Notes: a model not told the origin generated them from the sequence alone. A stretch of 63,243 nucleotides of DNA, filler included, from Reclinomonas americana ATCC 50394 (GCA_048213135.1; 2 parts of one record of this genome joined end to end with filler, not necessarily neighbours in it); one strand, 5' to 3'. Shown: positions 1,485-55,300, numbered from the whole stretch's first letter. Translations and numbers: made by a program.

Positions 1485-4400
1485 TCACACGCACTTGACG
1501 TCCGTCGCCGCCACACAGCCGAGGCGCTGACCGGTGCTCCAGTTGAACGCCTGGTACGGCGTCGCACCCTTGTTCAGCAGCTGGCAGCCTCCCTCAATGC
1601 GGCACTGGCAGTGCGTGCCGATCGAACCGGTGCTGCTGAACGGAGCGTACGGGTACGTGCACGAGCATGCACTGCACGACATGCATAATCGTCAGGTCTC
1701 CTCTCTTTCTCTCTCCGAAGACTGCATGCTTCGTCCACATCAACGCAACTTGCTCACGCAGCGACCGCCGACAAACAGTCCACCATTGTCGGCACGACCC
1801 ACTCCGTAACCCATGCACTGCGTGTCGCTCGTGCACACTGGCGGCGGCGGTGGCGGAGGTGGCGGAGCGGTCGCGCACGTCGACCCACTGTACCCACTCT
1901 TGCACACGCACCCGGTGCCGGTGCGACCCGTCGAGCACGACTGCGTGCCGGTGGCATTGCACGTCGAACAGCTCTTGCTGCAGTCCGATCCCCTGCACAC
2001 CTCATCGTGTCACTCGCCCAGAATAACATACACACACCACAAATAAAGAGCACACACGCACCACCGATCACTTGCGCAGTTGTCGCACAGCGCTCCAGCA
2101 AACCCAGCCTTGCAAACTGGCCATCTTCGTCAGTCACTGCCAATTGCACCACACTCGCCTCATCGCACTCACCGCATCCGCTTCCCACCGAGCAGCTCGC
2201 CGTGCCGGCTGCCAGGCACGAGGCGCACGTCAGGTTGCAATTGCTGCCAAAGTGGAGTGCATCGCACTGCGCGCACGTCGGTCCACCAAACGGCGCAAAG
2301 CACGAGCATGATCCGTCCTCCAAGAAGCACGCGCCGCGTCCAGAGCAGTCCTCCACCGGACGACACTGCAACCCGCCACCCGTGAGCACCATTACATCGA
2401 CAACATCATCATCGAAAACACCAAAAAAGAGCACTCAACCTGGCAGTTCTTGCCACCAATGCCCGCCGAGCACAAGCAGGTGCCCGCCGACTTGCCACTC
2501 GCAACAACACAGTAGCCGCTCAGGCTCGACTTGTTGCCGATCGTCACTGGTTGCACGTTGCCTGCCACAATGTGTCCGAATTCAGTCATCACTCTCACCT
2601 CACACGAAGAAGAACAACAGATGCACACCGTTGACCGCCAAGTGATTCCAGTTGCAGTGCATGTCGGTCTCACAGTACCCATCTGTATACACGCCAAGCA
2701 CACTCAGTTGGACCGCATCACAAATCGATATCAATTGTCGCGGCGCACACGCAACTCGTCGGGTTGACGCATGTGCCGTCCGAGTCGCGGCATGTCTGCG
2801 TGTTCGCGCATCCAGTGCACACGCTGCACGTCGGGCCACTCCAGTTACCAGCGCACGATCCGCAGTCCACATCGGTCCAGTGGACCGCGCACTTGCACGT
2901 GTCATCGGCCTGGCATGTGCCATGCAAGCATGAGCACGCCGAGCACTTGGCTGGCACCTCGGCTCCGAACGGTGTGTTGGTGACGCCAGAGAATGCAATG
3001 TTGTCAATCAACCATCCAAGGAATGTGCCACCTCCGTCACAGCCGATGCGGAAACGGATCGACACGGTCTTGCCTGAGCGACAAGAGTGAGATCACCTCT
3101 ACCGTCGATGAATACAGCAACAGATGACAATATACCCACCGGCAAATGCAGTGCCGAAATCGAATGACTCGTGATTAATATTGGGGTAGTTGGCGTTAAG
3201 GGCGGAGTAGGCTGGTCGCAGCGACAGTGGATTGCCCGAAATATCGGTGAGAATACCAGTATATGACGGCTGCGACACCAGCGTTTGAGTAAGCTGATCA
3301 ACACACTGACGACGACGACAACAACAATAATAGCACTCACCGACACCCAGTTCGACACATCAGTCCACGTCGCGCCGTCGTCATCGGAAATCTCCACAAC
3401 ACCGCCGTCCCACGCAATCGCAATCGATCCGTCGGGATTCAAATCAGCTTCAAACGCGAATGCGTGGTCGAACTCGATCTTGAAGTGAGACGCAGGATCG
3501 CTCGACACGTGGAGCGCAGGCGATTGGATCCAGTGATCAGCGATGTTGCCAATGTCCGCACCAAACCACATTTGGTTGGTGGCAGGCTGTCCAGGGATTT
3601 GGACGTGTTGCGGGGACCACTGGTGCAGCGGAGTACCGCCATTCGTCCACACTTGCTCCACAAATGGCGCCTCCACGGTCTCTGTGGCTGTTGCCGCGGC
3701 ATTGAACTCGACGTTCATCGTGCGCGAGAACGAGCCCTCCGCTGAGTTGCAGGCGGTAGCAGACGTCGCCTTCACATAGCCCGCCAGGAGTGCACTGCCG
3801 CGTGCCGTCGATCGCAGCTTGAAGTTGAACTCGACCACCGTGGATTGACCGGCTGCCGGTGGTGCAATCGTCTTGCTCAGGCTGTCCACAAACACCGCCG
3901 CGGCTGATGAATCGGCATCAAGCGTCAACGTCACCGTCACTGTCTTGCCAGCCGTACTGCCGGTCACGTAGCGACTGGTGTTGCGCAACGTCACACGCAC
4001 AACACCGTCCTCACCGGCTTGCTGTAATCGTGTGCACAGTATGAGAGTCTACCGGCGACACGGAAATAACCACATCGAGCAGCAGACGTACCACCACGCC
4101 ATCATGGTTGCAGCTCTTGGTGCCTTCGCCGACAACCACATCATCCAGTGCCACGAAAAACTTGGACCAGTCATTGTCGAGAGACTCGACGACGTCAGTG
4201 AAGTCTGGCGATTGGGGTGCCACAGCGCACGCTCCTGCAGTCGCTGACGTCAGAAACGCACACACACTTTTTTCCCATTCTCTCTCCCTCATACACGGAA
4301 GAAACGAACCCAGTCCGCGGGTCGCATAGCCGGAAGCCAAGATCGCCGCATCGGCCGGATTCACAGCATTCGCGGCTGTCAGGAACGAGTCTCGGTAGTC

Positions 4401-52300: not shown

Positions 52301-55300
52301 TGACCGTGCTGTCGATGTGTGCTCACTGCGGGCAGACATTGCAGCACTCTATGCCGGCGACATGGTGTGCACTAGCGAGACTTCTCCCAGTTATCGATGC
52401 AAAAAAGACTCACATGCTGGCAGACGGAGATTGGTGAGGATGGCGTGAATCTGTCGGTGGGGCAAAAGCAGCGTGTTTCGCTCGCTCGTGCCGGTCAGTT
52501 GGAGACCCGAGAGTTGTCATCCCTCTCCCTCCCTCTCTCTCTCTGCTCACTCACATGGTCTCACCTCCCACAGTGTACCGAAATCCCGCGATTGTGATGC
52601 TTGACGCTCCGCTCGCTGCAGGTGATTGCGTGTGTAGGTGCGTGCATGTGCTACCGTGTCCGTGCTTTTGAGCGTGCAGTGCACAGTGGACAACATTGTC
52701 GGTGCCGAGATCTTTCAGCAGTGCATTCTCGGCGAGTGGGTTCGTCGCGATGACACAGTGACGAGTGACTGCGCGAATTTACTTACCTTCTCCGTCTCGC
52801 AGGGAGCGTGCACTCGAATCCTTGTGACACACAATCCGCGGCACTTGCCGTCGTGCGACACAATTGTGTACATGGAGCGAGGAGCGATTGTGGAGCGCGG
52901 CTCGTTTGCTGAGCTCAGCGCCAATCGGTACTCGTACACAGCACGGTTCTTGGAGCGCCATGCTGCAGATGAAGAAGCGACGGATACGCATGCTGTTGAG
53001 GATGACGGTGCACTGAGGCGCTTTCCCAGTGCCGATCGAGCCGGTGGACGCTCCTCCGAAGCCATGGATGCAGACATGATGGTGGTGGCAAGCCCGACAT
53101 CGGCCGCGAGTAACGGAACGTCGTCGACAGCGCCAGCACCCACTTTGGCGGACGGTAAGTTGGTGCAGCAAGAAGAACGCAAGACCGGAGCCGTCTCCAT
53201 GCAGACCACTCGCGAGTACATTGGCAGGTTGGTCGTCCTCCATCAGTCGTTGCATAATCGATGTACGTCTCACACAATGTTGCGACGAAGCTGGGGTCGT
53301 GTGGCTGTGATCGGTGTCTTTGTGCTGTCGTTCGTCACCGAGCTGCTCATGCTCGGATCAAGTTGCGTGGAGCGTTGTCTGTGCCCTTGGTCGTCTGACT
53401 CGCTTAGCCTCGCTCGTGACAACAGCGTACTGGCTGTCGGTGTGGTCGACGGCTGCGGCAAAGGACGATCACAATGACACGAACTGGTACCTCGGCGTGC
53501 TGGTGGCCATATCCATGGGTGCCGTGGTATTCAGCGGTATTCGCACCATTTGGTGCCGTGTGTCGGGTGAGCCGCTTCTCCGCCACCACCTTCAGTTTAC
53601 TGTGTCAACCACTGTTCCTCATGTGCACATGCAGCCATCAATACGGCCTCCAAGCTGCATCGACGCATGCTCGACTCGGTGGTCGGCAGCACGGTCTTGT
53701 GGTTCGACCAGAATCCACTGGTTTGTGAATACAATTTCGATCTCGGCTTTAAATTTGGTCATGCGTATGAACTGGTTGGCGTGTGCAGGGACGCGTGCTG
53801 AATCGTTTCACAAGAGATCAGTCGGTTCTGGACGGCGAGCTTCCGTGGGCAGTGAATCATGCCAACGAGTTGGTATGTGGCAATTGCAGAGCAGTGCGTT
53901 GCTTGTGTCGCCAACTAAACGCATTGTCGGCAGGTGTTTCGCCTTGTCGGCCAGCTGATCTTACTCGGGTTCGTTTGTTTCCCACAAATGATACGTTTCT
54001 GTACCATGGTGATGACACTCATCATTTGTGCGCGCGCACAGTGTCATCCTACCATTCCTGATTGTCATTCTCCTTGCCGGCCTTGCGATGTACTGGTTGG
54101 TCGCCACTTTCTACCGCTCCACAAGTCGGAATGTGGCACGGTTGCGAAGTGAGTGCTCGTTCTCTTGCGATATTTTGTGTGATCATGAGCAGCGCGCTTC
54201 ACTCATTCTGTACCGCGTCAAGGTCTGGCCAATTCTCCGCTGTTGGCACACTTTTCATCGGTATGTGGATGGGCGGATGTGCATGCATGGTCGCGCTTGT
54301 GCTGAACCGATGATAAACACAGGTTCTGCATGGACTGCCGTCGATCCGAGCTCACCAGCAGGAATCACTTGTGAATTCGCAGAATGAGCGCCATCTGGTA
54401 TGTACGACCATCCCGCATATCTCCTTTTATCATCATGAATGGCTCACGCTGTTGCTCCTGCAGTCACTCTTCGAGCGATGCAGTATTCTCAGTCGGCTGC
54501 TGAATCGCTGGCTCTCTGTCAATGTGGAGCTCATGTTGCGTCGGTGTCTTGCACCCAGCTCTCGTGCTCTCCACAAGCACTGACTGACCGACCGACTGGC
54601 AGAGGCTCGGCTCTTCTCCTGTTCACCGGCCTCTTTGTGGTGATTGCTCGCGGCACTATCTCTCCGTCACTCGCTGGTCTCGTGCTGGCGCAGGCGCTTA
54701 CAATGACCGACTTTCAATCGTGGACTGTCATGGTGGTGAGTCCGCCATTCTCTCACACTTGCTGTGTGCTGTGAGCTATCTCTCATGGTGCATTCCACAG
54801 GTGGTCATTGCGGAGAATGGTGCCGTATCACGCTGTTGTAGCCTGTTTTCGATATCAAATCTGATGCATGTGTGCAGGCATGACTTCAGTGGAGCGCATT
54901 CTCGAGTACTGCTCACTGCCACAAGAAGGCGACGCAGTGCAGCGCTCCATCGGCAACGCCGCCGATTCGCTGCAGGTGACTCGCGGAACCATCAGCTTCC
55001 ACAATGTGTGCATGCGATACCGACCGGAGCTGCCACTAACGCTGCACAATGTCTCGTTCGACATTCCGGCCGGCGCGCGAGTCGGCATCGTCGGTCGCAC
55101 TGGAGCTGGCAAGGTGTGCACCTTTATCATCGTGCCGGTCCTTCTGTTGTGTGCTCACTAGCCACCATTGGCGCAGTCGTCAATCACCATGGCGCTCTTC
55201 CGCATGACCGAGATCGAGTCGGGACGCATCTGCGTGGACGGACACGATATCCAGGCAGTGTCGGTGGCGGCACTGCGGCAACGTTGCGACGCTCGCGGTA

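Follow-up and report, generated by a model that had tools for sequence, protein, structure and literature searches.

An abundant GTTGCG(T) class of 5′ splice sites in a 63-kb window of the Reclinomonas americana genome

In a stretch of the genome of Reclinomonas americana ATCC 50394 (GCA_048213135.1), introns that begin with GTTGCG(T) constitute an abundant second class of donors (5′ splice sites), found in unrelated genes (at least 10). The stretch analysed, called the window throughout, is 63,243 bases long and consists of two parts of one record joined end to end with filler; outside its 16 runs of N, the G+C content is 57.5%. About one short intron in five appears, from the genomic sequence, to start with GTTGCG(T) and not with the usual GTGCGT or GTGAGT. 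The best reading of these GTTGCG-type introns is that they are genuine GT-AG spliceosomal introns, ordinary for this genome in being about 60–85 nucleotides long with a CAG acceptor and a CTCAC- or CTGAC-like branch region, and that their 5′ splice site is N/GUUGCGU. A donor class of this kind had been proposed in an earlier sequence-only reading, which listed 30 donor coordinates, and within the window the proposal stands. The motif is present at all 30 coordinates, 28 times as GTTGCG, once as GTTACG (24739) and once as GTTGAG (37699), with T at +7 in 22 and, as had been claimed, G at −1 in only two (15878 and 39500).

Abundance of GTTGCG donors and support for individual introns

Two custom programs were used to model introns. 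One was a profile-to-DNA spliced aligner based on dynamic programming (DP), in which introns start with GT or GC and end with AG, with no further donor model; its profiles were built from 120 PSMD12 homologues and from ABCC-type homologues. The other was an ab initio gene finder; it scored codon usage, the acceptor (by a matrix) and the length of the intron, while at the donor any GT was allowed. With the penalty that was chosen, it recovered 26 of the 31 homology-supported introns of the ABCC-type transporter gene (the ABC gene), on whose antisense strand it made no prediction. Its commonest donor hexamer was GTTGCG, which began 28 of 196 predicted introns (8 for the next hexamers) and, once the program had been retrained, 29 of 181. 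Of the 30 listed donors the program recovered 22, and it added 13 unlisted ones of the GTTGCG type.

The 42 introns obtained by homology or motifs and the 145 common to both ab initio runs, with overlaps merged by union, gave a merged set of 151 introns. GTTGCG begins 27 of these, although only 1.1% of the GT sites, which number 7919, belong to this hexamer (binomial p 4e-24). Removal of paralogue copies and overlapping alternatives left 117 independent introns, comprising 25 of the GTTGCG type (~21%), 18 with other GTT donors and 74 others; these abundance figures are estimates, drawn from an intron set that includes some false positives. T at +3 is normally rare in eukaryotes, and here it is found in 43 of the 117 independent introns, compared with 44 that have G. 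On homology alone, the GTTGCG-type share is three of six introns in PSMD12 and five or six of 35 in the ABC gene. The hexamer itself occurs 50 times on the + strand and 40 times on the − strand, where Markov models of order 1 to 3 predict 27–38 per strand (90 on both strands, 55–66 expected), and in predicted gene spans it lies 57 times in sense and 13 times in antisense orientation.

As intron starts, 26 of the 30 listed donors are supported; the remaining four (15878, 25968, 25789 and 47499) found no support. For nine sites the support comes from homology, for three from Pfam coordinates or a motif, for nine from paralogue alignment and for five from ab initio prediction only. The eight listed donors that the gene finder missed are three with paralogue support, one with homology support and the four unsupported ones.

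Profile DP placed six introns in PSMD12, with the donors GTGAGG, GTATGT, GTGCGT, GTTGCG (23819), GTTGCG (23331) and GTTACG (24739). The last of these was the best of 15 GT/GC-AG candidates (138.3 bits, compared with 128.8 for another donor), and a scan made without the dinucleotide rule again gave a 70-nucleotide (nt) deletion as best, the sole GT..AG among its equal-scoring placements being the one with the GTTACG donor. Several junctions had been proposed as pinned by conserved motifs. Spliced scoring at 24739 bears out GQYKQ/AV in PSMD12, and scoring with the profile hidden Markov model (HMM) at 23331 does the same for RVL/NEW. In the protein kinase gene, the exon ahead of GYR/APE ends on position 164 of the Pkinase profile, and in the phospholipase B-like gene the PDL/FNFDW junction falls at position 478 of the 487 positions of Phospholip_B; both junctions are likewise confirmed. 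The kinase, phospholipase B PDL/FNFDW and DUF92 exons all end where the Pfam profile alignment ends or nearly ends. The second phospholipase B-like junction, proposed as NSGT/YNN, is kept in the form NSG/TYNN, which is presumably a conserved motif. A search of Pfam and the PDB gave nothing at the NSG/TYNN exon end, the PDB yielding only chance matches to the open reading frame (ORF) of the exon, and among longer proteins no homologue of the phospholipase B exon was found.

In the ABC gene, five GTTGCG introns (50074, 50272, 51112, 54535 and 55283) were found by DP and a sixth (53362) by candidate scoring. The donor at 49764 lies in a poorly conserved part of the gene, where homology is indecisive (36.9 compared with 36.7 bits). 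An unlisted GTTGCG at 52005 was rejected as a donor, candidate scoring and DP both placing it in coding sequence of the ABC gene. All modelled GTTGCG-type introns begin with GT and end with AG. The introns of these four genes are as follows (scores in bits, the competing donor second).

24739..24808 (+): 70-nt intron, GTTACG, PSMD12/Rpn5, GQYKQ/AV; homology, DP, ab initio
23757..23819 (−): 63-nt intron, GTTGCG, PSMD12; HMM 128.6 vs 122.6 for GC 3 nt downstream; DP; ab initio
23155..23331 (−): 177-nt intron, GTTGCG, PSMD12, RVL/NEW; HMM 118.7 vs 112.5 and 109.3; DP; holds tRNA-Arg
32148..32233 (+): 86-nt intron, GTTGCG, kinase, GYR/APESL...SDMWSVGV; Pkinase position 164 is the last residue of the upstream exon; ab initio
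16910..16974 (−): 65-nt intron, GTTGCG, phospholipase B-like, PDL/FNFDW; Phospholip_B position 478/487; ab initio
17907..17988 (−): 82-nt intron, GTTGCG, phospholipase B-like, NSG/TYNNFW; presumably conserved motif; ab initio
49764..49823 (+): ABC intron, GTTGCG, acceptor 49823 or 49832; ab initio, both runs
50074..50151 (+): 78-nt ABC intron, GTTGCG; 54.6 vs 52.8; DP; ab initio
50272..50338 (+): 67-nt ABC intron, GTTGCG; 25.9 vs 25.6 for GC at 50275; ab initio; GC-allowing DP picked 50275
51112..51173 (+): 62-nt ABC intron, GTTGCG; 54.1 vs 48.2; DP; ab initio
53362..53425 (+): 64-nt ABC intron, GTTGCG; 125.9 vs 123.2 for GC at 53365; ab initio; other solutions from the DP runs
54535..54602 (+): 68-nt ABC intron, GTTGCG; 58.0 vs 51.3; DP; ab initio
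55283..55356 (+): 74-nt ABC intron, GTTGCG; 82.7 vs 73.8; DP; ab initio

Comparison of three tandem paralogues (A, B and C) revealed conserved exons separated by diverged, indel-rich introns, and in each copy GTTGCG (GTTGAG once) is kept at the same three intron positions. This conservation accounts for nine of the listed sites.

36901..36965 (+): paralogue A, intron 1, GTTGCG; three-copy alignment
37040..37109 (+): paralogue A, intron 2, GTTGCG; three-copy alignment
37699..37766 (+): paralogue A, intron 4, GTTGAG; three-copy alignment
39357..39425 (+): paralogue B, intron 1, GTTGCG; alignment; acceptor by exon-start motif; missed ab initio
39500..39570 (+): paralogue B, intron 2, GTTGCG, G at −1; alignment; missed ab initio
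40146..40206 (+): paralogue B, intron 4, GTTGCG; three-copy alignment
42022..42084 (+): paralogue C, intron 1, GTTGCG; alignment; missed ab initio
42159..42223 (+): paralogue C, intron 2, GTTGCG; three-copy alignment
42801..42869 (+): paralogue C, intron 4, GTTGCG; three-copy alignment

Donor composition and the register of recognition

Ordinary donors of the window centre on GTGCGT and GTGAGT and are looser than the GTTGCG class. Among 31 independent supported GTTGCG-type donors, GCG occupies +4 to +6 in 29 and T follows at +7 in 25, so that the T at +7 carries 1.40 bits of information, compared with 0.24 bits at +6 of ordinary donors. The base at −1 is A in 11 of these donors, T in 12, C in 7 and G in 1, whereas 52 of 76 ordinary donors of independent introns have G at −1; the depletion of −1 G reported by the sequence-only reading is thus real. 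A mixed set gave 0 of 29 compared with 66 of 98 (Fisher p 6e-12). The −1 composition of the GTTGCG type differs from that at −1 of ordinary donors (p 5.5e-8) but not from that at −2 (p 0.56; 31 and 76 donors), and because of this match to the ordinary −2 position, the scarcity of −1 G fits a register shifted by one base. The class had been described as an ordinary donor with one extra T. This is too simple: GTGAGT is about as common as GTGCGT among ordinary donors, yet the GTT class is nearly all GCG.

A third group of donors, GTTTGT and GTTCGT, has T at +3 together with G at +5, and has kept G at −1 (14 of the 24 GTT donors that are not GTTGCG). Because both G at −1 and G at +5 are kept, these donors are in the normal register. 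In the ABC gene, GTTTGT occurs as a donor three times, GTTCGT twice and perhaps GTTGGT as well, each following G; donors with T at +3 in the normal register (GTTTGT, GTTCGT; + strand) are found at 50890, 52740, 53721, 53969, 55932 and other positions.

The two classes have the same median intron length, 67 nt, and across the window intron length is tightly held at ~55–85 nt. The acceptors of the GTTGCG type are the usual CAG. A branch-like motif, mostly CTCAC or CTGAC, lies 15–35 nt upstream of a (T/C)GCAG or ACAG acceptor; CTVAY, sought 7–45 nt upstream of the acceptor, is carried by 18 of the 29 introns of the GTTGCG type, by 60 of the 98 ordinary ones and by 346 of 2000 random 65-mers. The consensus motifs of U12-type introns are RTATCCTT and TCCTTRAC. 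RTATCCTT is present at no donor (two matches in the window, 0.53 expected, one of them in the 3′ part of the intron 17907–17988) and TCCTTRAC has two matches (45411 and 60257; 2.37 expected), neither in a GTTGCG-type intron, and the U12 type was rejected. As with U12-type introns, a minority with a rigid 5′ splice-site motif exists beside a looser majority; unlike them, the GTTGCG type has the same acceptor and branch-like motif as the majority class of this genome.

What is established here comprises the introns and how abundant they are, together with their lack of −1 G and the rigidity of +4 to +7; the RNA or protein that recognises the motif, and the register it uses, are inferred. The 5′ end of U1 small nuclear RNA (snRNA) is AUACUUACCUG, as printed in the available part of Tan et al. 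(2016, PMC4856993). This is the human U1, which may not be that of the host. By hand count, GUUGCGU pairs with it at five positions when shifted by one, but in the normal register at two only, both Watson–Crick, besides an isolated wobble. With confidence a little better than even, the normal U1 ribonucleoprotein reads the GUUGCGU donor one base out of register. The G at +1 would then take the role that −1 G has at ordinary donors, while U+3, G+4, C+5, G+6 and U+7 would stand in for +2 to +6 of an ordinary G/GUGCGU, and cleavage would stay before GU. The shifted register would cost one mismatch, so that only near-perfect GUUGCGU sites would work; the rigidity of the motif would be explained by that cost.

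Several points weigh against this account. The proportion derives from one 63-kb window, and each junction is deduced from genomic DNA. The gene finder produces false positives: in the ABC gene 26 of 37 predictions match, and 22 of 35 after retraining. The nearly invariant C at +5 (29 of 31) would face a U or pseudouridine of standard U1, and pairing with standard U1 alone leaves the rigid GCG unexplained. Positions −2 and −3 do not separate the registers, and at −3 there is a mild enrichment of C (13 of 31) that would not be expected from the shifted register. Moreover, a register in which U+3 is bulged also has five pairs by hand count against the human U1 5′ end, equal to the shifted one. 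In such a register the same introns would be read by the same U1, with G+1 and U+2 paired, U+3 (or U+2) flipped out and GCGU pairing as +3 to +6. Bulges of the +2/+3 and +3 type are described for human sites in the accessible portion of PMC4856993, and the GTTGAG donor at 8998 is preceded by cag, as a bulge site would be. The bulged register is nevertheless unlikely. There, C9 of U1 would gain a partner in a −1 G, which should thus be favoured or at least be no rarer than background, yet it is present in one of 31 GTTGCG-type donors, compared with 52 of 76 ordinary ones, and in none of the 29 of the mixed set. It is this near absence of −1 G that favours the shifted register. The sequence-only reading had suggested a variant U1 or U6 or an altered U1C or Prp8. 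It is rather doubtful that the reader is a dedicated one, be it a variant U1-like snRNA, a protein specific to the lineage or an altered contact of U6 or U5, with ordinary U1 left for the other donors. Such a reader would suit a motif far more rigid than the ordinary donor (1.40 bits for T at +7, 0.24 bits at ordinary +6), the GCG in 29 of 31 donors that includes a C which standard U1 cannot pair, and the rarity of GTTGAG although GTGAGT is common in ordinary donors. Against it, intron length, acceptor and branch-like motif are equal between the classes, and its prior is low, given that the U1 sequence ACUUACC is invariant in 236 fungal species according to the available text of 10.1101/2023.05.04.539401. 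In addition, no snRNA gene lies in the window: a search with Rfam at the gathering threshold gave one transfer RNA (tRNA) only. In its furthest form, which must be called improbable, GUUGCGU introns would be a third spliceosomal kind with their own variant U1-like snRNA or lineage-specific factor matching the motif, C+5 included; this would parallel U11 at U12-type donors, with branch site and acceptor recognition in common with the major class.

Other explanations concern the introns themselves. If they were GC-AG introns starting 3 nt downstream (GTT/GCGTNN), with GTT supplying all or part of the final exon codon, the 3-nt shift would preserve the reading frame; two further observations that count against a GT start are that profile DP with unpenalised GC picked 50275 and 53365, and that the advantage of GT is just 0.3–2.7 bits at 50074, 50272 and 53362. 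The GT start nevertheless scored higher in all eight HMM comparisons (50074, 50272, 51112, 53362, 54535, 55283, 23819 and 23331), GTTACG (24739) and GTTGAG (37699 and 8998) offer no GC, an extra residue would fall inside GYR/APE, and the invariant GTT ahead of every such "GC donor" would be left unexplained, making this explanation very improbable. It is just as hard to credit that the motifs arose by chance and that the frame breaks are frameshifts of a draft assembly or wrongly inferred junctions. The assembly is indeed a draft with 16 runs of N and one piece that is probably misoriented, four of the 30 sites are unsupported and the GTTGCG at 52005 is coding; yet GTTGCG begins 27 of 151 introns where 1.1% is expected (p 4e-24), the sense to antisense ratio is 57:13, the excised segments are 59–86 nt long with an AG end and branch-like motifs, and the paralogue alignment displays indel-rich introns between conserved exons. 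Finally, many introns of similar length with a common rigid 7-nt start could be the conserved ends of a mobile, multi-copy, introner-like family. An all-against-all comparison of the 151 introns, however, gave 19 similar pairs, mostly paralogue copies or overlapping alternative predictions, and three short cross-locus matches of 15–20 nt, none of them with a GTTGCG-type intron. No match joins GTTGCG introns of different genes, and outside the donor these introns have no sequence in common. A mobile intron family is rejected on this basis, and hardly any weight is left for this explanation.

Relation to known 5′ splice sites

Bulged registers at human 5′ splice sites were reportedly treated by Roca et al. 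in 2012. In the part of Tan et al. (2016, PMC4856993) available, the +2/+3 and +3 bulges account for 68 and 51 predicted sites, respectively, among 10,248 predicted noncanonical ones; they resemble the GTTGCG donors in having an extra U after GU and a downstream consensus displaced by one base. Human 5′ splice sites in a shifted register (Roca and Krainer 2009, as cited in PMC4856993 and PMC9311317) are presented as an atypical exception. These too are alike, consisting of N/GU, one extra base and the usual consensus, with U1 pairing moved by one and cleavage at GU, and a test oligonucleotide given in PMC4856993, ACAGUCAAGUAUA, has the same layout as N/GUUGCGU. The differences, as far as these excerpts go, are that the human shifted register is rare and may have any base at +3, whereas here it would be used by about one in five introns (25 of 117), with U at +3 and a near-invariant GCGU core.

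A division of donors into two major classes has a precedent as well. Its classes are said to be called AG//GU and //GURAG by Parker et al. in 2022. In the accessible text of that study (Parker et al. 2022, eLife, PMC9803359), the two major classes of 5′ splice sites trade exon-side against intron-side strength. As here, a strong exon end (−1 G) combined with a loose intron side marks one class, and the other lacks −1 G and has a strong intron side. Both of those classes are in the normal register, whereas the second class described here has an extra U and almost no G at −1.

In full-text literature, from which the genome paper of this organism was absent, there was no GTTGCG donor class and no lineage that makes large-scale use of such a register; texts that combined GTTGCG or GUUGCG with terms for introns or splicing were primer and construct papers only. 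Thus, out-of-register recognition is known for rare human sites, whereas an abundant and rigid GTTGCG class in one lineage appears to be new. Relatives were sought in metagenomes. The PSMD12 query gave no locus. The bystin query gave 74 loci, with at most 81% identity over short segments and at most 77% over nearly the whole query. Of 13 loci aligned with splicing allowed, eight have no intron of at least 40 nt (five have none and three only a gap of 20–27 nt, probably an alignment artefact) and look like transcripts, and four of the five loci with introns are clearly from different organisms. None of the 13 aligned loci has a GTTGCG donor, a result that leaves the conservation of the class uninformed.

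If the reading is true, the use of one rigid out-of-register motif by about one-fifth of the introns would constitute a natural system that goes beyond the exceptional sites studied in human minigenes. It could be used to address how U1, U5 and U6 set the position of cleavage when pairing is displaced, why such a donor class persists and spreads, and whether snRNA variants co-evolve with donor classes. Should a dedicated snRNA prove to be involved, a new subsystem of splicing would have been uncovered. In practice, many genes of this organism would be annotated wrongly by gene finders whose training relied on GTRNGT donors.

Genes of the window and further GTTGCG sites

The window is a gene-dense eukaryotic region, as revealed by Pfam scans of 508 ORFs, each read from stop to stop and no shorter than 70 amino acids. 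These scans identified two M36 fungalysin-PA-EGF genes in tandem on the − strand, as well as genes for phospholipase B-like, EF-hand, PSMD12/Rpn5, DUF92 and protein kinase proteins; the window also contains the unnamed membrane-protein gene in three tandem copies, LSM, the ABCC-type transporter, F-box, FKBP-TPR and bystin. The closest protein matches of these genes are from chytrid fungi and animals. The bystin exon reaches 63–72% to named proteins and 77% to one unnamed protein, and the PSMD12 protein ~30% to its best named matches.

The remaining listed sites comprise four introns predicted ab initio and the four donors left without support.

1672..1749 (−): 78-nt intron, GTTGCG, EGF-rich tail of M36 copy 1; ab initio only; same donor in copy 2 at 8306
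2683..2755 (−): 73-nt intron, GTTGCG, M36 copy 1; ab initio only; same donor in copy 2 at 9314
22301..22375 (−): 75-nt intron, GTTGCG, unnamed gene; ab initio only; weak coding score
47885..47943 (−): 59-nt intron, GTTGCG, unnamed membrane-protein gene; ab initio, one of two runs
15878..15884 (+): GTTGCGT, unsupported; plausible acceptors at 69–81 nt; no homology; not predicted
25968..25974 (+): GTTGCGT, unsupported, probably false; negative coding score on both sides; not predicted
25783..25789 (−): GTTGCGC, unsupported; plausible 84-nt intron; not predicted
47493..47499 (−): GTTGCGT, unsupported; no convincing acceptor; not predicted

The GTTGCG-type introns below are additional to the list.

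9242..9314 (−): GTTGCG intron, M36 copy 2, paralogue of 2755; copy comparison, ab initio
8229..8306 (−): GTTGCG intron, M36 copy 2, paralogue of 1749; copy comparison, ab initio
8923..8998 (−): GTTGAG intron, G at −1 (cagGTTGAGT), M36 copy 2; ab initio; runs disagree on acceptor; inter-copy indels here
19306..19366 (−): GTTGCG intron; ab initio, both runs
21947..22027 (−): GTTGCG intron; ab initio, one run
25586..25656 (−): GTTGCG intron; ab initio, one run
27015..27080 (+): GTTGCG intron; ab initio, both runs
27286..27349 (+): GTTGCG intron; ab initio, both runs
28780..28853 (−): GTTGCG intron, DUF92 membrane protein; DUF92 position 166 is the last residue of the exon; ab initio, both runs; best coding score 37.6
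35372..35434 (+): GTTGCG intron; ab initio, both runs
47608..47666 (−): GTTGCG intron; ab initio, one run
58130..58193 (+): GTTGCG intron; ab initio, both runs
58966..59032 (+): GTTGCG intron; ab initio, both runs

The M36 fungalysin gene with its PA and EGF-rich parts is duplicated in tandem on the − strand (1410–6360 and 7950–12860, offset ~6.56 kb). The copies are near-identical across the 1.8 kb aligned, the few indels being located in introns, and the pair reflects a very recent duplication or, alternatively, the tandem assembly of two alleles. The three tandem paralogues on the + strand (36800–44000) encode a multi-pass membrane protein and have a mean column identity of 82% in the aligned kilobase. 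This protein has no Pfam match, and its long 3′ ORF received only weak leads to RGS domains (0.83) from a protein atlas.

The two halves of PSMD12/Rpn5 (window 23066–25024) lie in opposite orientations across a gap of 20 N (24496–24515): profile positions 49–164 are on the + strand (24610–25024) and positions 163–447 on the − strand (24433–23066). Probably, the small contig between runs of N is misoriented in the scaffold. The last PSMD12 intron (23155–23331) contains a tRNA-Arg(TCT) gene at 23234–23307 on the strand of the host gene (−; Rfam 65.9 bits), and it is because of this gene that the GTTGCG-type intron is unusually long (177 nt).

The ABCC-type gene (49508–56077, + strand) has ~35 introns with a median of ~65 nt in 6.6 kb, i.e., about one intron per 35 codons, a density presumably above that of the human counterpart. 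In the DUF92 gene (− strand), position 166 of the Pfam profile lies at the donor 28853 and position 168 follows near 28079; either the predicted exon 28660–28779 in this region is a lineage-specific insert, or the intron is ~770 nt long.

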